NCBI GenBank assembly: GCA_012517435.1
Contig: JAAYUY010000076.1
Span: forward strand, 1,609 to 65,608
DNA: 64,000 nucleotides
Direction: 5' to 3'
Source of the DNA: Sphingobacteriales bacterium
GTDB lineage: Bacteria > Bacteroidota > Bacteroidia > CAILMK01 > JAAYUY01
Position 1 is the stretch's first letter. Each line of letters opens with the position of its first letter. Made by a program: the position numbers and the translations under genes. Under the pieces are notes generated by a model. That model had not been told where the DNA came from. It searched no databases and was given only the letters and a program-made list of their open reading frames with translations. Below, in pieces: positions 1 through 44,998 of this stretch.

Positions 1-200
1 TTGATACCTACCCATTGATTGCGTGAGTCGAGGAAAGCCGACCATGTCCCATAATCGCCCGTATTGGCCGGATTGATTAAAATCCTGTTCAGATGATACA
101 GATCATACACGGGAAGTTGCTGTGCCGACAGAGAAAGTGAAAAAAGCATGGCAACGATCCATAAGTTTATTATCCTGTTCTTTTTCATTGTTTTGTTCAT
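1..200 (-). CDS. PorP/SprF-family T9SS-associated outer-membrane protein, N-terminal fragment. The gene continues past the window start.
   Basis: Hand translation of the minus strand from the ATG at 198-200 gives MNKTMKKNRIINLWIVAMLFSLSLSAQQLPVYDLYHLNRILINPANTGDYGTWSAFLDSRNQWVGI with no stop before position 1. It shows a signal peptide followed by AQQxPxY, INPA and RxQWxG motifs, which match the conserved PorP/SprF N-terminus. The start lies 7 nt after the stop of the upstream type-B CTD gene. Confidence 0.6.
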   Translation of the reverse strand, partial: MNKTMKKNRIINLWIVAMLFSLSLSAQQLPVYDLYHLNRILINPANTGDYGTWSAFLDSRNQWVGI

Positions 201-207
201 TTAGCGG

Positions 208-2268
208 TTAACGTAAAATGGTTAAATATCCTGAATACACTTTATCGCTGTTATCAAACCTGATAAAGTAATAATAAGTGCCTTCAGGGACAGGATTTCC
301 TTTGTACATGCCATCCCAGTTGTCGGCATAGGCTTTCTGACGATAGACTTCCACTCCCCAGCGGTCGTAAATTACCACTTCATTATCGGAGTAGTATTTC
401 AGTCCGATATCCCAGATATCATTTGCTCCGTCACCGTTTGGTGTCAGCATGTTGACCAGATCAAGCGTATAATCAAGATTTACGGTAACTTTCAGTGACT
501 TTGTGTTTTTACATCCTTTAAGGTCTTCCCCGGTTACGGTATAGGTAATGGTTTGTAACGGAAGTGAAACAGGATCGGATTTAAAGGCATTGTCGAGATA
601 ATCGGGTGGCGACCACGAATAGGTATTTGCTCCCCACGCCAGTAAAGGTACGGGTTTTCCAAGGCTGACCGCAGTATCTTCAGGAGATACCATGATAACA
701 GGCAGTTCGTTTACAGTAACCATGATGCTGTCTTTGTTCACACAGCCATGATTGTCAAATACCAGTGCCCTGTATTTCCCGCTGTTTTTGGCAGTAATGG
801 TAAATGTGTTTTCCCCTGTGGACCATAATATGGTATTGATGGCCGGTGAAACGGTCAGGACAACACTGTCGTTCCGGCAAAACTCTGTCGGGCCTCCTGC
901 TGTGATGGTAACACTTGGCAATGCCCAGACATTCACGGCCTTCACAAAGGTGTCGCTGCAGGCAAAAATATTGGCCACAATCAGGCTTACCTGATAGGTG
1001 CCCGGTGACTGATACAGGTGTTTGGGGTTCTGGTTAATTTCCCCATGATTATCATCAAAATCCCAGTAATAATCTTTTATCGGGGCTCCGTTAGGTTGTG
1101 AGAGATTTTCAAAACTAACCGTGTTCCCGAGGCAGACGTCCTGGGCATTAAATCCGGCCGAAGGTGTTGGATGTATGGTTATATTCTTGGATATCATATC
1201 ATTACATCCGTATGCAGAGCTTCCTGAAAGCTCAATGGTATAGGTTCCGGCATCGTTGTAAACATGAACAGGGTTGGCAGCAGTAGAAGTGTTGCCATCT
1301 CCGAATTTCCACAAATATGTTTTTGCGTATGAAAAACTGTTGTCGATGTTAATATCGTATCCAACGCAGGTATTTGAAAAGGTGAAGTTAAGCGTAGGCC
1401 GTGGGGCTATCACCACCAGTTTGACCGTATCTTTTACACATCCCTTATCCGATTCCGATTTAACCTGAACCAGATAATTTCCCGGAGCAATAAAGCTGAG
1501 TCTGTTGTCAGGGCTGGTGGTTGTCTGCTCATAGAGCGGATCTCCGTCAAAGTTCCAGTAATACTTGCTGATGCTTCCGCCTGCAACTGAGGAAGTAACA
1601 GTAAATTCGGTGGTATCATGGAAACAGGTTTTATCGAAATTAAAGTCAACAACCGGCAACGGATTTACCTTAACAGTCTTTAAAACAGTTGAAATACAGC
1701 CACTATCTGTTATCACCATGAGGCCAACAGTATAGGAACCGGGAGTATTGAACAAACGGGACACATCGGTACCGGAAGAATCATCATAGATCAGGTCATT
1801 GTTAAAGTCCCATTTGTATTTGACAATGCTGCCGCCCGAAATGGTTGAAGTGCTTTTAAAGGTGTTGGCTTCGCCCAAACAGGCATCCGTGGCAGTAAAA
1901 CTAGCTACTGCCAGCGGATTGACTGTAATGGTTTTATAAGCGGTTGTAACAACGTTTAAACTACTCCGGATACGGATACCTACCGGATAACTGCCTGCAG
2001 AGGCAAACAGTTTGGTAACAACCGGTCCGGTGGCATCCGAAAAATTTCCGTCTGCATTAAAGTCCCATTCATACAGAACGATAGTTCCGGAGGTAACCGT
2101 TGAAGTACTTGTAAATTTAACAGCACTGCCATCGCATGCACTGGTATAGATAAAACTGGCTACATCACCAAAACTTTTGGTCATCATCAGGGCTGCTGCC
2201 AGTACCAGACTCAGGGTTTTCATTGCTTTTTTCATCGCTTTACTTTTTAAAAGTTTTACCATTCTCAT
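208..2268 (-). CDS. Secreted multi-PKD-domain protein with a T9SS type-B (gliding-motility-associated) C-terminal sorting domain
   Basis: 686-aa ORF. It has an N-terminal signal peptide (MKKAMKTLSLVLAAALMM) and five or six PKD-like repeats with WDFxxDG...GxYxV signatures. The C-terminal 80 aa (LTPNGDGANDIWDI...IYDRWGVEVY...WDG...P.GTYYYFIRF...GYLTILR) matches the type-B CTD consensus. The gene sits 3 nt downstream of the 9405-aa gene and 7 nt upstream of the PorP/SprF fragment. Confidence 0.9.
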   Translation of the reverse strand: MRMVKLLKSKAMKKAMKTLSLVLAAALMMTKSFGDVASFIYTSACDGSAVKFTSTSTVTSGTIVLYEWDFNADGNFSDATGPVVTKLFASAGSYPVGIRIRSSLNVVTTAYKTITVNPLAVASFTATDACLGEANTFKSTSTISGGSIVKYKWDFNNDLIYDDSSGTDVSRLFNTPGSYTVGLMVITDSGCISTVLKTVKVNPLPVVDFNFDKTCFHDTTEFTVTSSVAGGSISKYYWNFDGDPLYEQTTTSPDNRLSFIAPGNYLVQVKSESDKGCVKDTVKLVVIAPRPTLNFTFSNTCVGYDINIDNSFSYAKTYLWKFGDGNTSTAANPVHVYNDAGTYTIELSGSSAYGCNDMISKNITIHPTPSAGFNAQDVCLGNTVSFENLSQPNGAPIKDYYWDFDDNHGEINQNPKHLYQSPGTYQVSLIVANIFACSDTFVKAVNVWALPSVTITAGGPTEFCRNDSVVLTVSPAINTILWSTGENTFTITAKNSGKYRALVFDNHGCVNKDSIMVTVNELPVIMVSPEDTAVSLGKPVPLLAWGANTYSWSPPDYLDNAFKSDPVSLPLQTITYTVTGEDLKGCKNTKSLKVTVNLDYTLDLVNMLTPNGDGANDIWDIGLKYYSDNEVVIYDRWGVEVYRQKAYADNWDGMYKGNPVPEGTYYYFIRFDNSDKVYSGYLTILR

Positions 2269-2271
2269 TTT

Positions 2272-5200
2272 TTACCTCCTGAATATTTTATGTCTCAGCA
2301 CACCGTCTTTGGTCGTTATTTCAACCATGTAGAGGCCTTTCGCATAATTCATGAGGTCGATGCGGTGGCGATACTGTTTATCAAATACATCTCCTTTATA
2401 TTCGTCCATGACTGCCCCTTCGGAGTTAAGAACCCTGATATAGAGTTCTCCAATGTCCTGATTGGCTGTCATTTCCAGATTGACGTAATCGTCAGCAGGA
2501 TTGGGATAAATGACTACACCGATATACTGTCCTGAATTTTCATCACCAATGGATGTCGGATAAATATTGAGCTGTTTGGTGATTGTATCGCTTGTACAGC
2601 TATTGATAGCAATCAGTGTTACAGTGTATTTACCAGCTGCTTTATAGATATGTACCGGAGAATTGGCGGTGGAAGTTGATGCATCTCCAAAGTTCCATTG
2701 ATAAGATGTGGCATTCTTTGACTTATTGACAAATGATGCTGAATGGCTGTTGATGTACACATCAAAATCAGCTTCAGGAGGCAAGGTGTTGGAGCTGATG
2801 GTAATCAGCTTGCTCTGCAGGCAGAGTTTGCTGTCTTTTACCCAAATTTCATAGGTTCCGGATTTAAGATTGCTGAAAGTACCTGATGCCTGATAGTTGA
2901 CACCATCTTTCGAATAGGTGTAAGGTGCGGTACCACCTGCGCCACTTACCGTCAATGCACCGGTACCGTCATTCGGACAGTTTTCATTGGTGATGTTATC
3001 CACTTTAATGCTTAGTGGTGCGGAAGGTTCGCTGATGGTAACCTGCTGATCGGTCTGACAACCATTCTGGTCGATTACCGTAACCGTGTAAACTCCTTTC
3101 ACCAGATTGATAAAGTTGGAATCGCTGCGGTAATGTACTTTATCCAGCGTGAATTTATACGGTTTGACACCACCTGAGGCATGGACTGTAAGTTTTCCAC
3201 TGAAGTCGCCATAGCAGGCCACATCTGTCTTGTCGATGCTCTTGATGGTCAGTGCCTGTGCAGGCTCTGTGATGGTAAAGCTGACTGAATCAAGGCACAG
3301 GTTGGCATCTCTGATGTAGGCTTTGTAATTGCCTGCAGGGAGATTGTTGAAGTAACCACTGGCCTGGAAGGTAGTTCCGTTCAGGCTATACTGGTACAGT
3401 CCGGTTCCGCCTGTTCCTGTCAAAGATACACTTCCTGTTGAGCTACCCTTACAACTGACATTTGTTTTGGAAGCAACGGTTACATCGAGTGCAGCAATAG
3501 GCTCTGTAATGGTAACACCCTGGGATTCACTGCAGTTGTTGCCATCTTTGACGGAAACAATATAGTATCCTGCTTTCAGTCCGTTGAAGACATTGCCGGC
3601 CTGATAGGTCTTTCCGCCATCAGCAGAATACTGATAAGTACCGGTACCTCCTGTTGCTGTCAATGTAATGCTTCCGGTCATATCTCCCTTACATTTAACA
3701 TTGACTTTCGATACGGTAATGACAATCGGGTCAGGCTCTGTAATGACAAAACTGCCGGTATCCATGCATCCTCTCTGGTCTTTTGCAAAGACACTGTATG
3801 ACCCTTTGCCCAGCTTGACAAAATTACTGTCGTTCTGGTAAGTGGTTCCGTTCATTGAGAAGGAATAAGGACTGGTGCCTTTGTGTGCATGAACGGTGAT
3901 TTTACCGTCATTAAGCCCGGCACAGGTAATGTTGTAGGCATCAATGTTAATATCAGGTTTCGGATAAATGGTTACCGGAATGGTAAGGCTGTCGGAACAA
4001 CCATGATTGCTGGTGGCTACCAGTTTGACCTGATAGGTTCCGGCTGAAGCATACATTTTTGTTGCATGCATGGAAGTAGTGGTCGATCCGTCTCCGAAAT
4101 ACCATTTGTAAGTCAATACACCTGTATTGATGGAAGATGTATTGGTAAAGCTTGCCTGATTGCCATAACAAACATTGGCGGTTGTGAACGATACTGAAGG
4201 AGCATCGTAAACCGTTACTGATTTGGTAACGCTATCGGAACAGCCTTTATCAGAAACAGTAACCAGTTTTACCGTATAAGTGCCCGGAGCTGAATAGAGT
4301 TTGGTTGGATTAATGACAGTTGAACTTGAGCCATCGCCAAAATACCAGGTATGTGACATGGTACCGCTGCTGATGGTAGAGTTGTTGACAAAGCTGGCAC
4401 TGTGTTTATCGCAGACATTGGCCGTACTAAAGGAAACTTTCGGCATGGCATATACAGTGATGGTTTTGGTTGAGCTGTCTTTACATCCGTAATTGGAAGT
4501 GGCTACCAGTTTTACATTGTAGCTATTGGCAACAGAATAGGTATGGTTCGGGCTCATAACAGTGGAAGTAGCGCCATCGCCAAAGTTCCATGCAAACGAC
4601 ATTGATCCGGAAGTAATGGTTGAATTATTATAGAAGCTGGCAGAACTGCCTTCGCAAATATTGTTAAAGGTAAAGGATACCACAGGCATCGGGTAAACGG
4701 TTACCTGACTTGAGATGGTGGATACACAACCTTTATCGGAAGTAACTGTCAGTGTAACAGTGTAAGTTCCGGCAGCTGCATAAAGGTGGGCAGGACTGGT
4801 TTGCGTGGAGGTGGTGTTGTCTCCGAAATTCCACAAATAACTCATGGTACCACTGCTGATGGTACTGCTGTTGGTAAAGCTGGTGCTGGTACCGTAACAC
4901 ACATTGCTGGCACTGAATCCGGCAACCGGCAACGGATAAACAGTTACCTGCTTGCTTAAAGTATCAATACAACCTTTGTCAGTGGTTGCCTGCAACACAA
5001 CTGTAAAGGTACCACTGGCAGAATAGGTATGATAAGGACTTACATTATTGCTGCTGTTACCATCTCCAAATGTCCAGTAATAACTGTTGCTGCCACCCGA
5101 TACGGATGAGGTGTTTTTGAATTCAATGGCCGTTCCCTGACAATCATTATTGGCGGTAAAGCTGACTGTCGGCATTGGATAAACGGTTACACTTGAATTA

Positions 5201-8200
5201 TAAGTGGAAACACATCCTTTATCACTGGTAGCTTTCAGGCTTACGGAGTAAGTACCTGCCGAAGCATAGAGATAGCTCGGACTGGTGGAAGTTGAGGTAT
5301 TGCCATCTCCAAATGTCCAGTAATAGCTCATCGTGCCGGAGCTGATTGTACTCGTATTGTTAAATGAAACATACTGTCCGTCACAGACATTATTGGCACT
5401 AAAGCCTGCAACCGGCACCGGATTGACATTCACAGTCTTGACCACACTTGCCACACAACCCTTATCGCTGGTGATGACCAGTTCAACGCTGTATGTTCCA
5501 CTGGAGGCATAAGTATAGTTCGGGCTGACGTTGTTGGAAGTATTTCCATCTCCAAATTTCCAGAGATAACTCATTGATCCTGAAGAAATAGTTGAATTAT
5601 TGGAGAAGCTTACAGCATTGCCGTTACATACATCATTGGCAGTAAATGAAGCAACCGGCATCGGATTCACAGTAACTGTCTGAGTTATACTGTCTTTGCA
5701 GCCGTTTGATGTACTGACCACCAGTTTGACGGTATATGTACCGGCTGATGCATATTTATATTTAAAGCTTGTTGCTGTGCTTGTGTTTCCATCACCCAGA
5801 TACCACATATAATCCATGGTTCCTGAACTGATAGTGCTTGTATTGGTAAATACTGTTGAGTCACCTGAACAAACCGTTGTAGCGCTGAAGCCTGCATGTG
5901 GTGCAGGATAAACCACCACCTGTTTAATCAGACTGTCTTTACAGCCATTGTTGGTGGTTGCTATCAGTTTTACGTCAAATGTTCCTGAACCAGTATAGGT
6001 ATGTGTCGGGCTGGTGTTGGCTGAAGTTGATCCATCACCAAAGTTCCAGCTATAGCTATTGGTACCGCTACTTACACCTGAATTATTGGTGAAGGAGACC
6101 TGATTACCTTCGCACACATTGGCAGCAGTGAAGCTGACCACCGGCATCGGATAGACTGTTACTGTCTTGCTGATGCTGTCTTTGCAGCCATTACCTGAGG
6201 TAACTACCAGTTTTACCGTATAAGTGCCTGCAGATGCATAGGTGTAAACCGGATCGGATGAGGTGCTGCTGTTGCCGTCTCCGAATGTCCAGACATAACT
6301 CATCGTGCCGCTGCTGATCGTGCTCGTGTTGGTGAAGCTGGTGGCTGTGCCTTTACAGACATCGCTGGCATTGAAGCCTGCCACAGGCTGCGGATACACT
6401 TCTACGGTCTTCACCAGACTGTCCACACATCCATTATTGGTAGTGGCTATCAGTTTTACACTGTATGTGCCACTGGCTGAATAGGTATAATTAGGACTGG
6501 TATTATTCGAGGTGTTGCCATCTCCGAAATTCCACAGATAGCTGTTACTACCGCTGCTTACACTTGAGCTATTGACAAAGTTCACAGCCTTGCCGTTGCA
6601 GACATTGGCGGCTGTGAAGCTGACCACCGGCATCGGATAGACCGTTACTGTCTTGCTGATGCTGTCTTTGCAGCCATTAGCTGAGGTAACTACCAGTTTT
6701 ACCGTATAGGTGCCTGCAGATGCATAGGTGTAAACCGGATCGGATGAGGTACTGCTGTTGCCGTCTCCGAATGTCCAGACATAACTCATCGTGCCGCTGC
6801 TGATCGTGCTGGTATTGGTGAAGCTGGTGGCTGTGCCTTTACAGACATTGCCGGCATTGAAGCCTGCCACCGGCTGCGGATACACTTCTACGGTTTTCAC
6901 CAGACTATCCACACATCCATTGTTGGTAGTGGCTATCAGTTTTACACTGTATGTGCCACTGGCTGAATAGGTATAATTAGGACTGGTATTATTCGAGGTA
7001 TTGCCATCTCCGAAGTTCCACAGATAGCTGTTACTACCGCTGCTTACACTTGAGCTATTGACAAAGTTCACTGCCGTGCCGTTGCAGACATTGGCGGCTG
7101 TGAAGCTGACTACCGGCATCGGATAGACTGTTACCGTCTTGCTGATGCTGTCTTTGCAGCCATTATCTGAGGTAACTACCAGTTTTACCGTATAGCTGCC
7201 TGCAGATGCATAGGTGTAAACCGGATCGGATGAGGTGCTGCTGTTGCCGTCTCCGAATGTCCAGACATAACTCATTGTGCCGCTGCTGATCGTGCTGGTA
7301 TTGGTAAAGCTGGTGGCTGTGCCTTTACAGACATTGCCGGCATTGAAGCCTGCCACCGGCACCGGATAGGCGGTTATTGTCGAAATGGCTGTATCTTTAC
7401 AACCCTTGTCCGAAGTGGATATCAGGGTAACAGTATAAGTATTTGCAGTAGTATAGGTATGTAACGGATTGACCGAAGTTGATGAGGTATAATCTCCGAA
7501 GTCCCAGACATGGGTTAAGGTGCCGGAACTTACAGTTGAAGTATTGCTGAAGCTAATGGATTTTCCGGTACAGTTGTCGGTAGCACTGAAGGCAGATACT
7601 GGTTTTGGATAAATACTGATTGATTTGACCGTTGAATCCTTACATCCGAAGTTGCTTGTGGCTACAAGGGTAACATTGTAGCTGCCATCAGCATTGTAAT
7701 AATGACTGGGTGATGCAGTCGTGCTGCTGCTTCCGTCTCCGAAATTCCAATTACTGGTAAACGTTCCGCTGGTGATATAGGTAATATTGTTAAAGCTTGC
7801 ATTCTGGCCATAGCAAACGTCATTGAGGGTGAAGTTAACAATCGGATTCGGATATATGGTCACGTTATAGGTGAATACATCTGTACAGTTATTGTCAGTT
7901 ATCACTGTTAAGGTTACCACATAAGTACCTGAAGACTGATAGAGATGTTTCGGGTGCTGAACTGTTGAAGAATCACCATCGCCAAAGCTCCAGATATAAC
8001 TCATGGTTCCTGAAGAAAGGGTCGAAGTATTGGTAAACACAGTAGAATCGCCAAAGCAATTGTTATTGACAGTGAAGGAAGCTACCGGCAGCGGTGTAAC
8101 CTTAACAACAGAAACTGCTGTGTCGCGGCAACTGTAATTGGAAGTAACTATTAACTGAACGGTATAATTACCTGCCGAATTATAAAGATGAACCGGGTTC

Positions 8201-11200
8201 TTAACTATAACTGCCCCACTGCCATCTCCCATGTTCCACAGATAAGAGGTAATGCTGCCACTGCTTACACTTGAAGAATTGTAGAAGTTAATGGCCTGAT
8301 TGACACATCCTGCATCATGCGTAAATACAGCATCAGGTTTCGGATATACTGTCAATGTTTTGACAACTGTATCCTTACACCCTTTATCGGTTGTTTCAAC
8401 CAGCATAACATTGTAATTGCCTGATACAGCGTATTTATGCTTCGGATGCTGGTCAGTTGAGTTATAGGTATCAGCAAAGTCCCAGTAATGAGTAGCAATG
8501 CTTCCTCCTGAAATGGTGCTGAGGTTGGTAAAGGCAAGGGTATCATCCAGACAGGCATTGGCTACACTGAAGTCAACACTGCTCTGCGGATGGACGGTAA
8601 TCTGTTTTGTCAGTGAATCTGTACATCCATTGTTGGTGGTCGTAATCAGTTTAACATCATAAGTTCCTGCAGAAGCATAAACTTTACCTGTTGGATTTTG
8701 CAGGGTTGAGCTGCTACCATCTCCAAATGTCCATGCAAATCCGGTAACTGATCCTGATGAAACAGTCGAACCGTCTGTGAAATCAAAGCTGTTGCCTTTC
8801 AGACATTGCTTGTCGTTGTTGATGCTGAAGCTGACTGTTGTTTGCGGATCTACCGTAACTGAGCTGCTGGCAGAATCCAAACAGCCATTATTGGTGGTAA
8901 CAATCAGTTTTACAGTGTAAGTGCCGGCTGAAGTATATACCTTGGTCGGATGCTGGGTGGTGGCATTGCTGCCATCTCCAAATGTCCAGTTCCAGTTGGT
9001 AATGCTACCGGAACTAACCGTTGAAATATCTGTAAAGCTGAAGCTATTGCCGCTCAGACATTGTTTATCGTCATTGATATTAAATCCGGCTGTTGATTGC
9101 GGATAAACAACAACATTCTTAATAACTGAATCAATACAACCTTTATCGGTAGTAACCATCAGTTTGACTGAATAGGTTCCGGCTGCAGAATAGCTATGTG
9201 TCGGGTTTTGAGATGATGATACATTTCCGTCTCCGAAACTCCATGACCATCCGGTTATACTTCCCGAACTGACTGTAGAATTATCTGTAAAGCTAAAGCT
9301 GTTGCCACTCAGGCATTGCTTGTCGTCATTAATGCTGAAGTCGGCAGCAGATTGCGGATAAACGGTAACGGATTTACTGACAGAATCCTGACATCCGTTG
9401 TCTGTTGTTACAATCAGTTTCACCGTATATGTTCCGGCAGAAGTATAGGAATGGGTTGGATTCTGAGTTGTTGAGGTTCCTCCGTCTCCGAAGTTCCAGT
9501 TCCAGGCAGAAATGCTACCTGAACTGACCGTTGAAAGATCAGCAAAGCTAAAGCTATTGCCACTCAGACACTGTTTATCGTTGTTGATACTGTAATCAGC
9601 CACAGATTGCGGGAATACAATCACTTGTTTGACTATGGTATCTTTACATCCGTTGTCAGTCGTTACAATCAGGGTAACGTCAAAGGTGTCAGGTACGGAA
9701 TAGGTCTTTCCTGAAGGATTTTGTGCAGTTGATGTGGTTCCGTCACCAAAATTCCAATCGTATGATACAATAGAACCTGAACTGACTGTACTGGTATTTG
9801 TAAAGCTGAAGCTGTGACCACTGTAACATTGTTTGTCATCGTTAATGGTGAAGTCAGCCATTGGTTTGGGATAAACAGTAACTGTTTTTACAACGGTATC
9901 TTTACCACCAGTATTAGTGGTTACAATAAGCTGAACATCATAGGTTCCTGATGCAGAATATTGATGGGTCGGATGCTGAAGGGTTGATGTAGTTCCATCG
10001 TCAAAGTCCCAGTGATGTGAAACAAATGTTTGTCCCGGAGGTGCATAACTGGTATTGGTAAAGGTGGTTGTAAAGCCGTAACATTCGTTGGTATAGTTAA
10101 AGTTTGCACCCGGCTTCGGATAAATAATCAACTGATTGACCTGAGTATCTTTACAACCGTAGTCAGAGACAACAATCTGAGATACATAGAAGGTATCATA
10201 GGTCAGGTATTTATGTTTTGGATTTTGCAGGGTGCTGTTTGTTCCATCATCAAAATCATAATAGAACCCGACAATTGATCCACTTGTGATAGTTGAGGAG
10301 TCGGAGAACTGAACAGTATCGTCAATACTTGAATTCGGGGCATAGAAATCGGCTACCGGTTTCGGATAAACGGTAATGTTATTGGTTGTAGAGTCTTGAC
10401 AACCATTGTTGGTTGTAACTATCAGTTTTATGGTGTAATTGCCCGGGTTGCTGTAAATGTGGCTTCCATTAGTGGATGAACTGGTGTTGCCATCTCCGAA
10501 ATTCCAGAGGCTGGCGGTTATTGAACCACTTGAAACCGTACTGGTGTTGAATGTAGTTGCAGGATTTTCACGACAGGTATTTCCTGTAGTAAAAGATGCC
10601 ACCGGCTGTACATCTACGGTAACTTGTTTGGTAATGCTGTCTTTACAGCCATTGTTCGTGGTAACTACCAGTTTTACATTATATGTTCCGGCTGTACTGT
10701 ATGTCTTGGCAGGAGGATTCTGACTGGTGGAAGTCGTTCCGTCTCCAAAGGTCCAGTAATAGCTCGTAATCGTGCCTGATGACACTGATGAATTATCAGT
10801 ATAGGTAAAGCTGTTGCCACTCAGACATTGCTTATTGTCATCTATGGTAAAGTCAGCTACAGGCTGAGGATCGACTGTTACCTGTTTCGTGATGCTGTCT
10901 TTACAGCCATTGTTCGTGGTTGCCACGAGCTTGACATTGTATGTGCCGGCTAAGCTGTAGCTGATTCCTGACGGATTCTGGCTGGTCGAAGTGTTCCCAT
11001 TGCCAAAGGTCCAGCTCCAGCCACTGACACTGCCGCTTGATACGGTGCTGCCATCGGTAAAGCTGAAACTGTTTCCGCTCAGACATTGCTTGTCGTCAGC
11101 TATGCTGAAGTCGGCTACCGGCTGCGGATCGACTGTTACCTGTTTCGTGATGCTGTCTTTACAGCCGTTGTTCGTGGTAACTACCAATTTGACATTATAT

Positions 11201-14200
11201 GTTCCGGCTGTGCTGTATGTCTTGGCAGGTGGATTCTGACTGGTGGAAGTCGTTCCGTCTCCAAAAGTCCAGTAATAGCTCGTAATGGTACCTGATGTTA
11301 CTGAAGAGTTATCTGTATAGGTAAAGCTGTTGCCACTCAGACATTGTTTATTGTCATCTATGGTAAAGTCAGCTACAGGCTGCGGATCGACTGTTACCTG
11401 TTTCGTGATGCTGTCTTTACAGCCATTGTTCGTGGTTGCCACCAGTTTTACATTATAAGTACCGGCTAAGCTGTAGGTGATTCCTGACGGATTCTGGCTG
11501 GTCGAAGTGTTCCCATTGCCAAAGGTCCAGCTCCAGCCACTGACACTGCCACTCGATACGGTGCTGCCATCGGTAAAGCTGAAGCTGTTTCCGCTCAGAC
11601 ACTGCTTGTCGTCAGCTATGCTGAAGTCGGCTACCGGCTGCGGATCGACTGTTACCTGTTTCGTGATGCTGTCTTTACAGCCGTTGTTCGTGGTAACTAC
11701 CAGTTTTACATTATATGTTCCGGCTGTACTGTATGTCTTGGCAGGAGGATTCTGACTGGTGGAAGTCGTTCCGTCTCCAAATGTCCAGTAATAGCTCGTA
11801 ATCGTGCCTGATGACACTGATGAATTATCAGTATAGGTAAAGCTGTTGCCACTCAGACATTGTTTATTGTCATCTATGGTAAAGTCTGCTACCGGCTGCG
11901 GATCGACTGTTACCTGTTTCGTAATGCTGTCTTTACAGCCGTTGTTGGTCGTTGCTACCAACTTGACATTGTAAGTACCAGCTACACTATAGGTGATTCC
12001 TGACGGATTCTGGCTGGTCGATGTGTTCCCGTTGCCAAATGTCCAGCTCCAGCCACTGACACTGCCACTCGACACGGTGCTGCCATCGGTAAAGCTGAAA
12101 CTGTTACCGCTCAGACATTGCTTGTCGTCAGCTATGCTGAAGTCGGCTACCGGCTGCGGATCGACTGTTACCTGTTTCGTGATGCTGTCTTTACAGCCAT
12201 TGTTGGTCGTTGCCACCAGCTTGACATTGTATGTGCCGGCTGCACTATAGGTGATTCCTGATGGATTCTGGCTGGTCGAAGTATTCCCATTGCCAAAGGT
12301 CCAGCTCCAGCCACTGACACTGCCGCTCGATACGGTGCTGCCATCGGTAAAGCTGTAACTGTTACCGCTCAGACACTGCTTGTCGTCAGCTATGCTGAAG
12401 TCGGCTACCGGCTGCGGATCGACTGTTACCTGTTTCGTAATACTGTCTTTACAACCGTTGTTCGTGGTAACTACCAGTTTTACATCATAAGTACCGGCTA
12501 AGCTGTAGCTGATTCCTGATGGATTCTGGCTGGTCGAAGTGTTCCCATTGCCAAAAGTCCAGCTCCAGCTTGCAATGCTGCCACTCGACACGGTGCTGCC
12601 ATCGGTAAAGCTGAAGCTGTTCCCGCTCAGACACTGCTTGTCATCAGCTATGCTAAAGCCGGCCACCGGATTCGGATTGGGAGCTATCGTAGCTGTTGCC
12701 GTATCATTGCTGGCATCCGGGTCATTTTGCCCGTTTGGCTTATAGCTGACAGCTACAATATTTTCATTTGATGTAAAGTTATGAATACCAATACTGAATG
12801 TAATACTACTATCGGTCGGTAAGGAGCCTGTCCAGTAATAAGTAGTCTTGGGCACACCGTTGACGCTCCACCTGATGCTATCCTTGGTCAGGTAATTGGC
12901 TCCGTTGTTTTTCAGGGTAACATATACAGCATAATTGCCCGGACAACCCGGAGTGGCAGTAACAGAGACCAGTTGTGCATCATTTTCACGGCCTTCATCG
13001 GCTCCGATATATGGAGCAGAGGTGCTTCTGGTGGCTCCGTCAATATCCGTTGTAACAAAAGAAGTTACCGGGGTACCAGCCTTCATGGTATCTGTTTTTA
13101 CATGAAGATCGGTATTGCTGACAAAATACGGATTTTTGCTGATTGAATTCTGATCAAGGCCGGAGGCTGAATTCCATGTGGCCAGACTTGAATAGTTTGT
13201 GGAATTATAATATACCAGGTCGCTGCCTGTCGTACGAAGGTTATTGTAGTCAAACTGTGTTATGGTAGCTACAGAAGACATCGGGATATAAACTGCATAT
13301 CCTCCTCCGCTGTTGTTGAAAATATTGTTTTTGAAATAAAGACCTGAAGTGGTGGCATACAGGTATAATGCGGAGCTGTTGTTGGCTCCGGTGGTAATGT
13401 TTACTGAATTGTAGTAATAATCTGTATAATGCGAATTGTAGGAATAAATCCCATAATGAGTATATGAAGTACTGCTATTAGTGATTGAAACAAAGTTGTT
13501 GGCTACAAGGTTACGGTTGGCTGCGGTATTGTTGTCTCCGTTAAAGTAATAGAGATAAATTCCATAAGCAGTGTTAAGTCCCTGAAGCTGAATTTTATTG
13601 TTCTGTATCTGGGTCTTGGTGGTTCCGTTGACATAATAAACACTGGAGAAATAAATACCGTATTTGAAATTGGATGAATTGATATCAATGATATTGTTGT
13701 TGAACTTATTCCCGTAATAGCAGTTGATAGCATATATACCATAAGAAGCTACATTGATGGAATTGTAACTTACATCAGAAGTATAGGCTATCTGATTGAT
13801 ATTAATACCGTAAAAACCTACAACTGGTGAAGATATGGTATTATTGGTGATGGAAATACCTCTTTGCTGATTGACATTAATACCCTGATAGGTAAAGTTT
13901 TTAATGGTATTGTAATCAATCTTGTTCCCATAAACGACCGGATAACTATATCCATTCATCACCACACCGTTATAGCCATTTTCAATGGTATTGTATTGAA
14001 CCTCATCATATTGGCAATAGTTTCCTGAACCGGTTCCGACAAAAGAAACCACATCAGAATTGTTTCCATTCACGCTGGTCGAACTGCTAATAATATGGTT
14101 ATATTTTATTTTGACATAATTGGCTGAGTTGGTGGCGTAAATAACCCTGTTATACGTATTGGAAGTATTGCGGATGGTCAGGTACTGGAAGGTAATGTAA

Positions 14201-17200
14201 TCGGTACCATTGAGGCTGATTACATAGTTGGTGGATGAAGTAGAGTTGCCGTATGTCAATATAACCTTTGAAGTATCATTATCTTCCGACTTGAAAGTAA
14301 TGGTATTGACAGCTGAAGCACCCGGAATCTGTCCGAGTTCAAACTGCTCGTTATAAGTTCCGGCTCTGACATTAAAGGTTACCGGCCCGCGCACACCGCA
14401 GTTATTAAGGAAAAATGCAGCATCGGAGAAGGTGGCAAAATTGGGGGAAGTACCACCAATGGTATAATTACCGGACAATGCGGCACAAATGTAGCCTGTG
14501 GCTGTATCATTGGCGGGTTTGTTGTCTGTCGTGGCATTTGGTTCACTGGTGTTGGCCACAATGGTATAGAGAATACCATCTGAAACACTCACATTTCCAA
14601 GACTTTGCGTTGCGGTTTGTCCGCTTGTCAGTGAGCCGCCCCATGCTTGCTGGCTCTGAGCCGTACCATTGACTTTCCAATTGACTTTTGCACTGGTCAA
14701 GGTATTCAGACCATAGTTTTTAATGGTTGCTGAAATGCTCTTGGTACCAGGGGCATATGGCGGTGTAGGACCTGTAATGGCATACACGCCTGCATCATTG
14801 TTGACAGGCACTGTACCTGAAATATTAATATCATCAAAGATAACTGCTTCATTACCTAACTGATAACGTGATTTATAGGAAAATTTAAGTTGCGTGGTAC
14901 CTGATACCGATTGCCCTGCATTCCGTAATACATCACTGATACTTGCAGAAGCATTTTTCCATGTCATATCGCCAGCACGATTGGCACTGATATCATATAA
15001 TAAAACCCATGGTGTAGAAGGATCATTATTTCCTCTTACCCAAACTCCATCTTCAGCAGAATATTGGCGATACATCTGATACATGTACCAGAAAGAAATA
15101 TCCAGGTCAGTAGCTCCAACATAGTTGCTGAGATTCAGGGTAAGAATCAGATTACCAACTGCCCAGCTATTGAAAACAGCATTATCGATCAATGCAGCAT
15201 AAGCGCCTCCGGTCGTGTGATTATAAACCGAACCTGCATTCATTTGCAGACGCGACTGATCAGTGGGTGCAGGAACTGATTCAAACTGCCATTCTTCCAA
15301 TCCACTTCCATTGAGCGGCCTTGTTGAAGCGGTGTAGGTATATGGTGTTGTGGCGGTTTCAAAATCTTCACTATACGGCAAGGTAAGCGGCAACATATTG
15401 ACCATTCGGCTTCCTGTCGGATTTTGATCTGTTGTCGGATACAAAGAACCATTGACAGAAATACTGTTTGCTTTTATTTTGGCATCTACTGTATTAAACC
15501 AGACTGCATTCGAAGTAATGTCATAGGTGATCCAGAGATATGTTGTTGAATTGCCCGGTAAATCATAATTAATAGAATTCCATTTCACTGAGCCTCCGGA
15601 AAGTACTTTTCCCGTACCAACAGGAACGGCTGTTGAGAAGGTTGGCGTTGTGGTCCGGAACAACCTGACCGTGTCAATATCGCTGTTTGAAGTATTGACG
15701 GCAGTAACCTCCAGTGAATCAAGATAGAGGTTGCTGGTGGTTCCATTTACAACAAAGTCAAGCCTTAATACAGGATAATAGTTGGAATCCCTGTAAACAT
15801 CATCTGTCGAGGGCTGAACATATTCAATACGGCTGAGCACCTTATCATTGGTTATTTTTCTGAAGCCTGCAGGAGCAGTAACGGTATTTATTCTGGCCGT
15901 ATCATCAACGATAACCGTATCACATTCAGCATCAATGGTGTCGCCTATATTGGCTCCGCTCTTTACGTCATAAGCAAGCCAGAAATAGTTGGTACCTGCC
16001 TGGAGTTCCTGTGTTCCGGTAATGATAAACCGGCCATTGGGTGCACTGACCGTACTGCCAAACTGATTGGCAATGCTGAAATTATTACTGGTTCCTGTAT
16101 AGTACAATCTTGCATTTTGAATGTTGGTGGTGGGTGAATTGGTTCCGTTGGTGGTGAAAGAGAATTTGCTGGCAGAAATAGCACTATCCTCTCCGCTTGT
16201 AACAACCTGAATACCAAGAATCTGGTTGTAGGAAGAACCCGGAGTCACATTGCTGGTAACACTTTGCGTGGTCGTGGAAGACACATATTTCATGGCCGGC
16301 CTGATTTCATCGGCACCAATAGTAGGTGTGGAAGTACTGCGGCTGTGTCCGTCAATATCTGTATTGACATAAGTAACCGGGGTTCCTGCATTGAGCTGGG
16401 TGTTCCATGTATGCAGGTCATTTGCACTCCAGAACGATGGATTGTAGTTTTTGGAATTGGCTTCGAATGGTGTTACTGCTGTCTGCCAGTTGGCAAAACT
16501 GGTATAGGATGAACCATTCAGATAGCCAATATAGGTTCCGGTAGCATATATGTTATTGTAATCAGAAGCCTGAGGAACATAGCTGGAAGCAATATATACA
16601 GCATAACCTCCGCCTGTATTGGAAGCTATATTGTTGTAGAAATAATTGTAAGTGTTTGTTGATGAGTGATTAAAATACAAGGCGGCAGAAGAGGTGGAAC
16701 CATTGCGGATGCTGATGCTGTTGTGAATAAAATCTGTATTGTTACAGCTGGTGTACTGCACTCCGTAACAGGTTCCCGTACCGTTGTACAGCGAAACAAA
16801 GTTATTGGCAATCAACCATCTGTATTCTACACTTGAACCATTACCCTGTAAACTGTTCATGTATATACCTACAGAAGTTGAAGAAGAGGTTGTTCCCTTT
16901 AATATCACCTTGTTCCTCAACACGGTGGGTTTAACCATATTATCATTGTAGTAACAGCTTGTCAGATAGATACCTACCTGAACATAGGTGCTGTTGATGG
17001 TAATCTGGTTATCGTTTACCCTCGGGCCATAGTAACAGGAGGTGAAGTAAATACCGTACTTGGTATTTGAACTTCCATCGAGTAACACAGTGTTTCCGAT
17101 GGCTTCTGTCTGGTAATAACACTGGGTGATATAAATACCATAGTTTATATATGTATTGTTGGTTCTGACCGTATTGTAATCGGCTTTGGCAGCTTTCTGG

Positions 17201-20200
17201 TTGTAAATAAACACACCATAGTAGTAGAAACTATCAACAAGGTTGTAATTGAATACATTGCCTTCGGAATAGCTCGGGGAATAGCCACCCCACCTGAAGC
17301 CATAAGAACCGTATTTCACCACATTATAGGTAAATGTATTAAAGGTGCAATGTGTGCTTTGTGATGTATAATAAGAATAGACAACTGCATTGGCATCACT
17401 TGTATTGGTGGAATAATAACCAATAAAGATATTGGAGGTGAAGGTATTGTAGTTGGCCTGGTTGGTCAGGTCAACGACTCTTGAATAGGTAGTACCAAGG
17501 GCTTTGATGGTCATTTTCCGGATGATGATATAATCAGCTCCGTCAAGCTTAATGGTATAATTGGCAGTGCTTAAAGTAGCGGAATATTGCAGTGTAACCT
17601 TTGTACTGTCATTGCTTTCACTCTGGAAAGTAATGGTATTGGTAGCCGAAGAACCGGTGATGGATGGAATAACCACCTGCTCGGTATAAACACCATTTCT
17701 GACATTAAAGACGACAGGGCCGCAAATACCCTGCGTGCTTAAAGCAGTTACAGCTGCGTTAAATGAAGCGAAATCAGGACTTGTGCCGCCAATCGTGTAG
17801 GTCCCGCTCATCCCCCTGTAAATATTATTCCCATAAACCGTATCATTTCCTGTTTGAGTCTCAGCATACTGTCCGTTGAAATAAGAAACATATACCTTGA
17901 AATTGTAGGCTGTATTTGTACTCAAAGTGTATTGTCCGATAACAACCTGTGCGGTATCTCCGAAACTGAGATTTCCTGTCCATGCATAAGGTGTTTGTGC
18001 CACCCCGTTAACAGTCCACCTGATGGTATCACTGGTAAGCGCTGCAGTTCCAAAGTTTTTGATGGTTACTTTTACATCGGCCGTAGCGGCACAACTCGGA
18101 TGAACCGGGCTAAGAATTGCAATAATTCCGGCATCTCTGGCGATGGGTTTCAATTCATAGGCTCCTATGGTCGGAGTGTAACGGGTACTGTCGAAAATAT
18201 CGGTAGAAATGCCTAGTCCGGTAACTCCGCGGTTGAGTGAATAATTGGAATGGCTTAAATCGGTGTTGCTGACAAATCCCGGATCAATATTGACTGAATT
18301 GGCATCCCAGCCTGAGCCAGCCTGCCAGGCACTTAGCGTGGTATAGTTTGTTCCATTGTTGCATAAGTACAATGAATTGGTATAGAGATCATTATAATCG
18401 CAGGATGCTACATAATCATTGGGTGACAAATAAATAGCATAGCTGTTTTTGTTTACAACAATATTGTTTTTGACATTGTTATAGTAATTGCTGCTTCCGG
18501 ATAAATACAAACCTGCATTGGAAGTTGTATTTGATGGTCCTGCCTGAACATTTACGCTGTTGTGATAAATGTTGACGTATTGACTTGAATATACAGCAAG
18601 TCCGTAAACTGCACTCGAAGTATTGCTCCCGTAAATAGAGATGTAGTTGTTAAACACAGCGAAAGGCACAGATGAATTACCAGAACAACTGTTCATATAC
18701 AAGCCGTAATCACTACCAGGTCCTTTCAGGAAGATTCTGTTTCTCGAAATTTCGGAGCCAGTGCTACCTGTCGAAGTATTGCTGTTAATCAGATAAATTC
18801 CATATTCACCGGTTATAAGCGACCTGCTTCTGATCAGGTTTCTCTGAATTTTTATATCATACTGATAATAAGAATATATCCCGTAAGTGTAGAAGGAATC
18901 AATGGTATTACTGATGAAGGCATTTCTGTATTCGTAAGGGGAAGCATCTCCAAACCAGTAGATGGCATAGGAGCCATATTTGATGGTGTTCCCCTGAATG
19001 GTAATATCGTTACAGGTATTGGCCCCTGAAGAATAATTATAGATAACGGTATAGATATCACTGGACGACAGGAATGTCGAACCGTAAATCTTGTTGTTCA
19101 GAATGGTAATACTATCATTGTTTCCTTTAAACTCAATTACTCTTCCGTAAGCCGAAGAGCTGGTCTGGATTTTAAGGCCTTTAATGGTGATACATTTGGC
19201 ACCATTGAACCGTAAGACATAATTGGTCAGAGAGGATGACGGAGCATAGGTCAAAACGGCATCATAGGTATTTGCCGGATCGTTCTGGAAAGTAACCGAG
19301 CGGGACTGGATAGCACCAGGAATGGCTGGTATTTCAATCTGTTCATAATAAGTACCCTGGCGTACATTAAAGACAACATTTCCGCAAACACCATAGGTAA
19401 CCAAAGCATTGACGGCTTCAGTAAAGCTGGAATAATCGGGTGAACTGCCACCGATGGTATAGGTGCCGCTTAAGCCTGTTCTGATTCCTGCTGAAGTGCT
19501 TGTGTCGTTTGTCGGATTGCCATCTGCCTGCGTACCGTTGAAATAGGAAGGATAAGCCTTGATTGTATAGCTGTTTCCGGCTGTGAAACTATAGGCTCCT
19601 ATGTTCACATTGGCCGTCTGGCCTGAAGCCAGTGAGCCTGTCCATGCATAAGGTGTCTGAGCTGTACCGTTGATGCTCCAGCGGATGGTATCACTGGTCA
19701 GTGTTGTGCTACCAAAGTTTTTAAGGGTAACGGTAACATTCCCTGTCAGGGCACATAAGGGCACTACCGGATTCAGGATGGCTGTAATTCCGGCATCATA
19801 GGCCGGCTGAATGTATTCATAAGCACCCACTGTCGGGCTGATCCTTGTGGTTCCGAATATATCGGTAGTAACACCCGTCCCTGTAACGCCAAAATTCATG
19901 GTTGAACTATAATGCCTTAAATCGGTATTTGAATAAAATGACGGATCAAGATCCTTTGAATGATCATCCCATGGGGAATTGAGAATCCACTGGCTTAAAG
20001 AAGACTGATAGCCATAAGTCCCTGAATAAATGAAATAGTTACCATTGGTATAATAATCATTGTAATCACAGGCTGAAAGATAGTTGTCGGGATACAGATA
20101 CAAAGCTAACCCCTGATTTTTATGAACACCAATGTTATTAACAAATTCATTGTATTGACTGCTGCTTCCATACAGATAATAACAGGCTGAAGCAGACGAG

Positions 20201-30489: not shown

Positions 30490-30581
30490 ATACTTGAATT
30501 TAAAAATTTTACAAATGAAAATGGTGTTCCTTTTACCGGAAACACCTGATGACTGAAGTGATTGGGAACTATTTTCCCACA

Positions 30582-30598
30582 GGAGTAAAATTTACTCC
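30582..30598. promoter_or_regulatory. Perfect 17-bp palindrome ggagtaaaAtttactcc, a candidate operator or hairpin
   Basis: Read directly: 8 nt, a centre A, then the exact reverse complement. It lies ~95 bp upstream of the giant gene ATG, on the leader/promoter side. An adjacent 6-bp-stem hairpin tgggaa-ctatt-ttccca sits at 30563-30579. Confidence 0.35.
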
Positions 30599-30672
30599 AG
30601 CGAGCTATCAAACCTTGGATGTGACCTGACATCCTTTCTTTTTTCATTTTCTTCAACTTTTTTCCCAAGTCA

Positions 30673-30775
30673 AAGTGAAGTGAGTTTTAAAATACTACCG
30701 GGAGGTAGAGCGCGTCTTTTATCGGAGGTGTATCGTTTGTCTTATAGGCATTCTATTTTAAAAATCACTTCACTT
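30673..30775. promoter_or_regulatory. 21-bp inverted repeat pair flanking a 61-bp spacer
   Basis: aagtgaagtgagttttaaaat at 30673-30693 and attttaaaaatcacttcactt at 30755-30775 are reverse complements with one mismatch. The spacer contains an inner hairpin ctacc-ggga-ggtag. Confidence 0.35.
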
Positions 30776-30992
30776 AATTACATTCCAGCATTGTTTTAAT
30801 ACGCAATATTAATACGTTATCAACAATTGTGAAAAAAAATTTTTTTTATTTTTCTAAAAAAAATCAAACTAATTTAACGATTTGAATTTCAATATTTTAT
30901 AAATTCCGGAGTAATTTTTCAGACAAAAATTCCCGGCAAGGTCAGATAAAATATTGAGGAGATAAAAAAATTTACAATCATAGGAGAATTGT

Positions 30993-31000
30993 TAGCTTTG
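30993..31000 (+). promoter_or_regulatory. Candidate Bacteroidota sigma-A -7 box (TAGCTTTG, matching TAnnTTTG) for trkA
   Basis: Exact match to the TAnnTTTG consensus, 26 nt upstream of the trkA ATG. No clean TTTG -33 element is seen. Confidence 0.3.
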
Positions 31001-31025
31001 TTGTCTGGTAAAATTTCATTTAAAG

Positions 31026-32369: not shown

Positions 32370-32375
32370 TCAGTC

Positions 32376-33824: not shown

Positions 33825-33888
33825 ATTTGCATATCTGATTTAATTCTCAATTTTGATTCGAAATTAAAATGCTACTTTTTGCAAAATA

Positions 33889-35646: not shown

Positions 35647-35649
35647 TAT

Positions 35650-36339
35650 ATGAGCAAAACACAAAAATACGTTTTAATTGGCATGGGTGCTTTTGGCCAG
35701 GAAATAGCCTATACCCTGAAAGAGTACAATGCTGAGCTTATTATTATCGATAAAAATGCAGATACTGTCGCACAACTCAAACGCGATGGTTTTCCATTTG
35801 TCGTCCAACTCGACTCAACAGACGGCTTTTCACTTGAAAAATTTGTCTCTCCTGACGATATTGTCGTCCTTTCTATGGGCGAATCTTTTGAAGATAATAT
35901 CGTTACGGTTGGAATTCTGACCAGAATTGGTGTCAAAAAAATTTATACTCGTGCTACCCGGATTATTCATGAAGAAATTCTGAATCAGATGAAAAACACT
36001 ATTACTCTCTTCCCTGAACGTGAGGAAGGTAAACGGGTCGCTCTTAAACTGCTTTACAAAGAATTTTATTTAATTGAGGAAATTTCTCCGGGAATTTTTC
36101 TTTGTGAAATGGATGTCCCTGAATCATTTGTCGGCCAGACAATTATAGAACTTGATGTCAGAAACAAATATGGAATTAATATCATCGGACTGAAAAAGCA
36201 TTCTGAGGATAATGAAGGTCTCATTTCCTCTGAAATGCAGGTTATTGGTTTTGAAAAAGTAATACTTGAAAAAAATCATATACTTGCCTTTCTGGCTAAT
36301 GAGAAAAATATGGCTCAGATGTTAAAGCATAAATTCTGA
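35650..36339 (+). CDS. KtrA/TrkA-like RCK-domain K+ transport regulatory subunit
   Basis: 229 aa. The N-terminal Rossmann motif is VLIGMGAFGQEIAYTL, and a TrkA_C-type C-terminal domain follows. The start is 3 nt after the KtrB-like gene stop. Confidence 0.85.
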   Translation: MSKTQKYVLIGMGAFGQEIAYTLKEYNAELIIIDKNADTVAQLKRDGFPFVVQLDSTDGFSLEKFVSPDDIVVLSMGESFEDNIVTVGILTRIGVKKIYTRATRIIHEEILNQMKNTITLFPEREEGKRVALKLLYKEFYLIEEISPGIFLCEMDVPESFVGQTIIELDVRNKYGINIIGLKKHSEDNEGLISSEMQVIGFEKVILEKNHILAFLANEKNMAQMLKHKF

Positions 36340-44996: not shown

Positions 44997-44998
44997 AA

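Follow-up and report, generated by a model that had tools for sequence, protein, structure and literature searches.

A probable type B cargo and its candidate wall-binding PorP/SprF-family carrier, encoded next to a type A giant in a Sphingobacteriales bacterium

The type B loci of Flavobacterium johnsoniae have reportedly been tabulated by Kulkarni et al. in 2019. Models of cognate pairs from this species have been reported to reach an ipTM above 0.8. It is a published rule of the T9SS, though one with exceptions, that a cognate PorP/SprF-family gene lies directly after the gene of a type B cargo (PMC12618676, PMC9143113, PMC10202324), and such cargo depends on the carrier whose gene comes next and remains attached to it (PMC12618676, PMC9143113). 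As to the fate of the bound cargo, the view of the field, drawn from indirect evidence, is that type B cargo accompanied by a PorE-like wall binder is static and that SprB-like cargo rides the gliding track. PorP binds PorE, which itself binds peptidoglycan (PMC9143113), and static complexes have been proposed for operons containing a PorE-like gene (PMC12618676). In SprF, residues Cys324 and Cys326 are needed for attachment to the track, but not for carrier function (PMC12635249).

The locus described here lies at the start of a 64,000-nt stretch of Sphingobacteriales DNA (hereafter the window) and comprises three genes in a row (Table 1), encoding a giant protein, a 686-aa PKD protein (the cargo) and a PorP/SprF-family protein (the carrier). 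A sequence-only reading had called this arrangement a SprB/SprF-like secretion cassette, tightly coupled by a 3-nt gap to an upstream giant bearing a type A CTD; the coupling is real, and the open reading frames lie where that reading had placed them. The sequence AGGAGG sits within the last codons of the giant gene. The start used for the carrier in databases corresponds to Met5, which would lengthen the spacer between cargo and carrier to 19 nt instead of 7 nt. More genes for giant surface proteins are found close by within the window, and an Rfam search returned 0 matches across its whole length.

Table 1. Coordinates of the three-gene locus and of its sorting domains within the window.
Feature	Position	Strand	Details
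Giant	2272..30489	(-)	9405 aa; stop TAA at 2274..2272
Giant type A CTD	2284..2511	(-)	about residues 9327-9402; TIGR04183, PF18962
Giant-cargo spacer	2269..2271	(-)	3 nt, from giant stop codon to cargo ATG
Cargo gene	208..2268	(-)	686 aa; stop at 210..208
Cargo type B CTD	211..462	(-)	residues 603-686; TIGR04131, PF13585
Cargo-carrier spacer	201..207	(-)	7 nt
Carrier gene, 5' part	1..200	(-)	ATG at 200; ORF leaves the window end; 66 codons

The 686-aa protein has a putative signal peptide, five PKD stretches (PF18911, 176 bits) and two Ig-like domains, and ends with a type B CTD. Its N-terminus is basic and then hydrophobic (LSLVLAAALMM), and the AF2 model, an all-beta chain of domains with a mean pLDDT of 87, has an N-terminal helix at residues 5-26; public gene calls, as recovered by the homologue search (P0001), begin at Met3 and give 684 aa. 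That this protein ends in a type B CTD, as first read from the sequence, was confirmed by two profiles, TIGR04131 (67.7 bits, cut-off 35; residues 604-686, profile positions 3-85 of 85) and PF13585 CHU_C (86.1 bits, cut-off 27; from residue 603/604 to 686), and the domain displays the motifs TPNGDGxND, IYDRWG, WDG and GTYYY as well as a final LTILR. A porP/sprF-like gene follows directly downstream, in the window and likewise in all related loci. An origin of the cargo as a recent duplicate of the PKD array of the giant was considered and rejected, because the identity between the two is only 30-35%. When the collection of species-representative genomes, in which the source organism has no close relative, was scanned with the cargo, only remote type B proteins were recovered (from Limnovirga, a Flavobacteriales MAG and Myroides), and the gene contexts of these were uninformative.

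The window holds only the first 66 residues of the carrier, but these already open as a PorP/SprF protein, in agreement with the sequence-only reading: they align with the start of the PorP/SprF models, over 43-60 positions, scoring 28.8 bits against PF11751 (over the cut-off of 22.3) and 39.9 bits against TIGR03519, the latter under the full-length cut-off of 90.55, as is expected of a fragment. The full-length protein was read, beyond window position 1, from metagenome contigs of the same species in other samples (L004-L008), which share 99.1-99.3% nucleotide identity with the window and encode the same first 66 carrier residues. In these contigs the carrier measures 531 aa (527 aa in the version P0121). 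One of them (L005) scores 200.6 bits against TIGR03519 (cut-off 90.55; profile positions 4-292 of 292) and 182 bits against PF11751 (profile positions 2-273 of 273). The expectation that the fragment would extend into a PorP/SprF homologue thus held, the full model being covered, while the anticipated length of ~300 aa did not, because a coiled coil and an OmpA-like domain come after the barrel.

In order, the carrier has a putative signal peptide, the PorP/SprF barrel (about 25-321), a helix of 63 residues (327-389 in the P0121 numbering), a disordered linker and an OmpA-like domain (429-523; PF00691, 79.3 bits, cut-off 27.2). The spacer of Lpp is similar in length to the carrier helix, about 9.5 nm. 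The AF2 model gives a barrel of about 14 long strands at residues 50-318 (pLDDT about 90) and places the OmpA-like domain at 421-527 (pLDDT above 90), with the helix between them modelled at moderate confidence only (pLDDT 57-75). Foldseek matches the barrel to FadL barrels and to PorV of the T9SS complex (8gl6_F), and the C-terminal domain to those of Pal and OmpA, at 1.1-1.5 A rmsd, and of PorE (6top). This domain carries the motifs GYADDVG...LSQQRA and NRRV, with the Asp and Arg residues expected of peptidoglycan contacts; both motifs are kept in the alignment consensus, and the domain is predicted to bind peptidoglycan. A match to the T9SS_PorE model NF052230 (51.7 bits, cut-off 600) is confined to the OmpA part, and profile searches found neither the TPR nor the beta-propeller domains of PorE in the carrier. 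Importantly, the carrier and its close orthologues contain zero cysteines, and the carrier therefore does without the Cys-X-Cys tail of SprF.

The fusion of a PorP barrel to an OmpA-like domain is by no means particular to this locus: the same order of domains is seen in 112 of the 150 best cluster representatives, so that the idea of a rare or novel fusion had to be abandoned. Only 3 of these 112 fusion proteins have a CxC after the barrel. In the most distant of the orthologous triplets, this position is taken by a coiled coil and a SPOR domain (PF05036, 24 bits against a cut-off of 21); the occurrence of a different peptidoglycan binder there speaks for wall binding as the function under selection. 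No account of a PorP-OmpA fusion came up in a literature search of incomplete coverage.

Taken together, these data point to the 686-aa PKD protein being a type B cargo of the T9SS and the gene directly downstream encoding its dedicated PorP/SprF-family carrier. This core pairing is textbook and will not surprise a specialist. The label SprB/SprF-like, in contrast, names the wrong sub-type, as the carrier has a periplasmic coiled coil and an OmpA-like domain in place of a Cys-X-Cys tail and hence resembles the static PorP-PorE class rather than the mobile class of gliding adhesins. The pair would then be nothing unusual as type B cargo and cognate carrier go, and would belong to the static kind, with its PorP-like and PorE-like parts fused. 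In the corresponding model, to which as a whole we assign a probability of roughly 0.7, the cargo would be exported by Sec and pass the T9SS translocon, after which its type B CTD would be captured by the 14-strand, FadL-like outer-membrane barrel of the carrier and remain bound there, exposing the string of PKD and Ig-like domains at the cell surface. Instead of ending in a Cys-X-Cys tail to the moving GldK track, the carrier would reach into the periplasm with a helix of roughly 9 nm, a flexible linker and a peptidoglycan-binding OmpA-like domain, so that a single chain would unite roles that published models split between PorP-like and PorE-like proteins, and the cargo would be kept at a fixed, wall-anchored site and not propelled. 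The giant would take the other route, in which its type A CTD is handled by the PorV shuttle, followed by release or by attachment to surface lipopolysaccharide.

The giant is an adhesin-like protein. Its N-terminal half gives matches to beta-helix/NosD, BNR_assoc_N and CARDB models, and its C-terminal half holds 36 PKD stretches, SprB repeats (PF13573, 77 bits) and the type A CTD (42.3 bits against TIGR04183, cut-off 23; 39.3 bits against PF18962, cut-off 27). The protein falls outside the definition of SprB, since it has the repeats but a CTD of type A instead of type B. The part of it that is conserved is the C-terminal region adjoining the CTD, of ~1100 aa. The sequence-only reading had proposed that the giant could anchor the smaller protein; nothing was found in favor of this, and the anatomy runs the opposite way, as it is the small protein that would be tethered to the wall.

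Conservation of the triplet in relatives had been put forward as a check on the proposed arrangement, and the triplet indeed recurs in seven further lineages (L009, L010, L011, L012/L013, L014, L018/L019 and L020/L021), which with that of the window makes eight. The flanking genes are unrelated from one locus to another. Across relatives, the three proteins diverge in parallel, identities being 80, 54, 50, 40 and 39% for the cargo, 84, 47, 43, 30 and 30% for the carrier, and 79, 46, 44, about 30 and 33% for the C-terminus of the giant. In L009-L012 and L014, the upstream gene encodes a type A CTD (33.7-45.6 bits), and in L018 and L020 a C-terminus that is colinear and homologous with that of the giant; in L018, the gap between giant and cargo is 138 nt, which leaves space for a separate promoter there. 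One relative also retains an M23/PKD giant near its triplet. More distant pairs of a type B gene and a PorP-OmpA gene occur without any giant, which these pairs thus do not need in general. In this clade, the giant is co-inherited with the pair and most likely forms one transcription unit with it, an assignment taken solely from the 3- and 7-nt gaps and the conserved adjacency; scans for sigma-70 promoters, terminators and the Bacteroidota -7 motif TAnnTTTG gave counts at or below chance and are uninformative for a Bacteroidota genome. No paper on a triplet of type A, type B and PorP genes was found in the literature search, again with incomplete coverage.

Two other readings concern the carrier itself. 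According to the one closest to the original interpretation, the locus is a mobile adhesin cassette in which the carrier links the cargo to the gliding track as it moves, perhaps along with the giant. The order of a type B gene and a downstream PorP/SprF-family gene, as in sprB-sprF, and the SprB repeats of the giant speak for it. However, the carrier has no cysteine, whereas SprF needs its Cys-X-Cys tail for sustained helical movement of SprB (PMC12635249), the predicted peptidoglycan-binding domain would immobilise the carrier, published data tie wall-binding partners to static cargo, and the CTD of the giant is of type A; we regard this reading as the least likely of those considered here. 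Also very improbable is that the PorP-OmpA protein serves the T9SS or the envelope in general and holds the machinery to the wall. The precedent is the single PorP of P. gingivalis, which associates with PorE and PorK/N and has been proposed to fasten the rings to peptidoglycan (PMC9143113), but the carrier gene invariably comes next after that of a type B cargo and had porKLMN beside it in none of the loci examined, and its family is large and diverse, as would be expected of paralogous carriers that are specific to their cargo.

Two further readings concern the giant. Its proximity may reflect no more than independent adhesins that share a locus and its regulation, through co-expression of surface proteins or a vertically inherited neighborhood. 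Such an explanation would fit the other giant genes near the triplet in the window, the M23/PKD giant near the triplet of one relative, which suggests an adhesin-rich region, and the fact that pairs of other lineages dispense with the giant; yet the order is strictly kept and the gaps stay very short down to 39% identity despite a complete turnover of the flanks, and we consider its chances to be somewhat short of even. The alternative is a composite surface fibre, in which the wall-tethered 686-aa protein is the dedicated docking base for the type A giant and two sorting signals deliver the two halves of one structure. The recurrence of the triplet in eight lineages, with its parallel divergence, short gaps and changing flanks, is in line with this, as is the location of the conserved part of the giant beside its CTD. 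But the PKD similarity of cargo and giant, at 30-35%, is generic, type A cargo already has an established route of anchoring or release, and elsewhere type B and PorP-OmpA pairs manage without a giant, which makes a composite fibre rather unlikely. Distant PorP-OmpA pairs have no giant; its link to the pair may consist of shared regulation only.

A large natural family that joins a carrier barrel to an OmpA-like or, distantly, a SPOR wall binder provides gene-fusion evidence for the partnership of PorP and PorE, and offers a simple way to predict from sequence whether cargo is static or mobile, by asking if the carrier ends in a wall-binding or in a Cys-X-Cys tail. In its conserved coupling with a type A giant, the locus in addition provides a specific, testable instance where cargo of both sorting routes may cooperate. 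More speculatively, the giant could be mounted on a wall-tethered type B base, such that the three-gene unit would build a two-part, peptidoglycan-anchored fibre, and PorP-coiled coil-OmpA/SPOR carriers could be general, fixed anchoring posts of the T9SS; we hold this to be doubtful.

Among described systems, the locus shares with Fjoh_3952, Fjoh_3951 and Fjoh_3950 of F. johnsoniae, which encode a type B cargo, an SprF-like shuttle and a PorE-like protein, respectively, the order of cargo and cognate carrier, a co-encoded peptidoglycan binder and the proposal of static anchoring (PMC12618676). Unlike in that locus, with its separate PorE-like protein, the OmpA-like domain is here fused to the carrier through the coiled coil, no PorE-like gene is found nearby and a type A giant lies upstream. 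With PG1035-PorP-PorE of P. gingivalis, the pair has in common a type B CTD protein on a PorP barrel and an OmpA_C-like link to peptidoglycan (PMC9143113), and the C-terminal domain of the carrier matches the structure of the PorE C-domain (6top). PorE of P. gingivalis is, however, a lipoprotein in its own right, built of four domains (TPR, beta-propeller, CRD and OmpA_C), whereas a single fused chain is encoded here beside the cargo gene, and P. gingivalis PorP is the sole member of its family and tied to the core PorK/N rings, whereas the carrier gene here adjoins that of its cargo. SprB/SprF of F. johnsoniae resembles the present locus in that a giant adhesin with SprB repeats is encoded, a type B CTD is present and a PorP/SprF-family gene comes next; yet the SprB giant itself bears the type B CTD, while here the giant is of type A and the type B CTD is on the separate 686-aa protein, and SprF, of about 330 aa, moves by means of a Cys-X-Cys tail in disulfide linkage with GldK (PMC12635249), in place of which the cysteine-free carrier has an OmpA-like domain. 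Finally, the OmpA, Pal and Lpp tethers likewise attach a peptidoglycan-binding module to an element in the outer membrane, and the OmpA-like domain of the carrier can be overlaid on Pal at 1.1-1.5 A, but the membrane element here is a 14-strand PorP/SprF carrier rather than the 8-strand barrel of OmpA or a lipid anchor.

At the low-coordinate end of the window, three minus-strand ORFs follow one another head to tail: a 9405-aa giant, a 686-aa PKD protein (the cargo) and a PorP/SprF-family gene (the carrier) cut at position 1. As read directly from the sequence, 3 nt separate giant from cargo and 7 nt cargo from carrier. The proposal that the three form one operon rests on these gaps and on the fact that the genes stay adjacent in relatives; scans for consensus promoters and terminators were uninformative on this point. 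In profile searches, the cargo shows five PKD stretches and ends (residues 603/604-686) in a type B C-terminal sorting domain (CTD; TIGR04131, 67.7 bits, cut-off 35; PF13585, 86 bits); AlphaFold2 (mean pLDDT 87) predicts it as an all-beta chain in which about seven Ig-like domains are followed by the CTD. A homologue search recovered the same protein at 100% identity, called from Met3, on contigs up to 151 kb (P0001). The giant matches beta-helix, NosD, BNR_assoc_N and CARDB models in its N-terminal half, carries 36 PKD stretches and four SprB repeats in its C-terminal half, and ends in a type A CTD (TIGR04183, 42.3 bits, cut-off 23). Its PKD domains share no more than 30-35% identity with the cargo's, so the cargo gene is not a recent duplicate of giant sequence.

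The 66-residue carrier fragment matches the start of PorP/SprF models. The full protein was read from five same-species contigs of different samples (L004-L008), 99.1-99.3% identical to the window in nucleotides and continuing past position 1. It is 531 aa long, with residues 1-66 identical in contigs and window, and spans the whole PorP/SprF model (TIGR03519, 200.6 bits, cut-off 90.55; PF11751, 182 bits, profile positions 2-273 of 273). The sequence-only reading, accurate as to the ORFs, gaps, both CTD types and the PorP/SprF start, had made its proposal depend on such an extension into a barrel, which all five contigs provide. NCBI entries of this same carrier from Bacteroidia and Sphingobacteriales MAGs (HPD64841.1, HRS58445.1, NLJ06879.1) are named only PorP/SprF family protein.

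The carrier runs on beyond about 320 residues, with an OmpA-family domain at 429-523 (PF00691, 79 bits). The AlphaFold2 model of the carrier draws on 29 homologues. In Foldseek comparisons its barrel resembles FadL and the PorV of the T9SS complex 8gl6, and its C-terminal domain resembles Pal, OmpA and TagL (1.1-1.5 A) as well as the PorE C-terminal domain (6top). The motifs GYADD...LSQQRA and NRRV, which we take from OmpA/Pal structures to be peptidoglycan-contact residues, occur in the carrier and are kept in the family consensus. Since an even number of strands would leave both barrel termini in the periplasm, the OmpA-like domain probably faces the wall; the 63-residue helix, if continuous, would measure about 9.5 nm, comparable to the Lpp spacer. 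The carrier and its close orthologues contain no cysteine. No PorE-like gene lies near the carrier, the next genes (L005) encoding proteins of 1591 and 666 aa.

Location of genes and of predicted carrier regions (window coordinates unless a contig or residues are named)
Feature	Location	Strand	Remarks
Carrier start	from 200 to window edge	-	66 codons, then cut off
Cargo	208..2268	-	686-aa ORF
Giant	2272..30489	-	9405-aa ORF
Two tandem trkA/trkH potassium-uptake gene pairs	31026..36339	+	447, 482, 585, 229 aa; between two giant-gene sets
2868-aa protein	36390..44996	-	M23 peptidase, DUF7619, 16 PKD stretches, SprB repeat, type A CTD; 2-nt gap after 340-aa gene
340-aa secreted protein	44999..46021	-	no known family; 23-nt gap after 5482-aa gene
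5482-aa protein	46045..62493	-	GEVED, beta-helix/NosD, eight CARDB stretches
1591-aa protein	L005:8674-13449	-	just past window edge, convergent with carrier; C-terminal Peptidase_S74 (endosialidase intramolecular chaperone)
666-aa protein	L005:13503-15503	+	weak type A CTD; adjoins 1591-aa gene
Carrier barrel	residues 50-318		about 14 long strands, pLDDT about 90 (AlphaFold2)
Carrier single helix	residues 327-389		AlphaFold2
Carrier disordered stretch	residues 390-418		AlphaFold2
Carrier compact C-terminal domain	residues 421-527		pLDDT above 90 (AlphaFold2)

The surroundings are also rich in large genes. A second tightly packed minus-strand set (36390..62493) combines, over its three proteins, a domain order that mirrors the single giant; no CTD match was found in the last 499 aa of the 5482-aa protein. 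An M23/DUF7619/PKD giant is also kept near the triplet of one relative (L020). Peptidase_S74 domains, such as that of the 1591-aa protein, are typical of tail-fibre-like proteins. The giant contains a 486-nt tandem repeat (6112..7368; 2.6 copies, 96% matches) and PKD-period arrays of 255-258 nt (8785..9592 and 10625..12677). Short-read metagenome contigs of the species all break within it, and L004 apparently has one 486-nt copy fewer; repeat number may vary in the population or reflect assembly collapse. The divergent giant/trkA intergenic region (30490..31025; 536 nt, AT-rich) gave no Rfam match, and has a GC-rich hairpin with a T-run (30546..30523) just upstream of the giant start codon.

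Conservation of the triplet, to which the sequence-only reading had looked for confirmation, was found in seven further lineages.

Triplets in the window and in relatives (identities to the window proteins; gaps in nt, negative values being overlaps)
Locus	Cargo	Carrier	Giant C-terminus	Giant-cargo gap	Cargo-carrier gap
Window				3	7
L011	80%	84%	79%	36	17
L020/L021		72%	59%	30	56
L009	54%	47%	46%	24	18
L010	50%	43%	44%	21	11
L018/L019		46%	42%	138	18
L012/L013	40%	30%	about 30%	22	12
L014	39%	30%	33%	-17	9

Each cargo gene in these triplets is immediately preceded by a large, PKD-rich gene. All five upstream genes scored among the seven lineages end in a type A CTD (33.7-45.6 bits), while the ends of the other two (L018, L020) are homologous to, and colinear with, the last 400 residues of the giant. 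Colinearity with the giant covers its C-terminal 1100-2700 residues, although the upstream proteins are very unequal in length (2911 and 3030 aa versus 9405 aa), and identities of giant, cargo and carrier drop in parallel between loci. As the triplet is kept while its flanks are wholly different (rhodanese, transposase, ankyrin-repeat, TonB-dependent receptor or trk genes, among others), it is a conserved unit specific to one clade of uncultured Bacteroidia.

Such constancy could reflect a physical partnership of giant and cargo, which we consider unlikely; independent adhesins under plain co-regulation are a more probable explanation. At two more distant PorP-OmpA loci (L015, L016) a type B PKD protein precedes the carrier with no giant, so the triplet is no general property of such pairs. 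If giant and cargo do interact, their anatomy suggests that the giant would be mounted on the small wall-tethered cargo, the reverse of the earlier suggestion that the giant could anchor the smaller protein.

The predicted wall-binding end of the carrier differs among relatives. The carriers of the orthologous triplets furthest from that of the window (L012/L013 and L014; cargo 39-40% identical) are 480 aa long, and their PorP barrel is followed by a coiled coil and then SPOR in place of OmpA (L014:12092-13534 and L012:7413-8855; PF05036, 24 bits, cut-off 21). The protein P0144 has the same architecture with a stronger match (37 bits), and the protein P0138 likewise joins its barrel to SPOR through a coiled coil. 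That two peptidoglycan binders of unrelated kinds occupy one and the same place argues for selection to preserve wall binding in these carriers. Fusion of the barrel to OmpA is common in public data: when 1.84 billion cluster representatives were searched in full with HMMER, 352 matched at E<=1e-30, and among the best 150 of these, 112 have the barrel followed by an OmpA-like domain, with linkers of 64-312 residues (median 125) and a CxC after the barrel in only three. A further 34 of these 150 are barrel-only matches, many of them 430-646 aa long and so probably carrying other C-terminal modules. Among the papers that could be searched, none was found to discuss the PorP/SprF-OmpA fusion.

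Type B cargo depends on the PorP/SprF-like product of the gene directly downstream, to which it stays attached at the cell surface (PMC12618676, PMC9143113, PMC10202324). The pairing recognized by the sequence-only reading is therefore the textbook arrangement; its analogy with SprB/SprF, however, picked the wrong sub-type, leaving that interpretation partly supported. SprF joins the moving GldK track via a Cys-X-Cys in its periplasmic C-tail, required for movement but dispensable for carrier function (PMC12635249), whereas the present carrier is cysteine-free and has the helix and OmpA-like domain in place of that tail, an architecture suited to static anchoring at the wall. A PorE-like gene is part of several type B/SprF-like operons of F. 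johnsoniae, whose products are proposed to form static complexes, while SprB and other dynamic substrates are encoded without one (PMC9143113, PMC12618676). We thus read cargo and carrier as a type B pair of the static class, whose carrier tethers itself to peptidoglycan. By analogy with established T9SS biology, the cargo would cross the outer membrane via the translocon, the carrier barrel would take up its CTD and keep hold of it, and the OmpA-like domain would secure the complex at the wall. The giant would take the type A route via PorV, followed by release or attachment to surface lipopolysaccharide. PorE of P. gingivalis binds both PorP and peptidoglycan (PMC9143113); the fusion supports this PorP-PorE model, with the difference that two roles held there by separate proteins are here combined in one chain.
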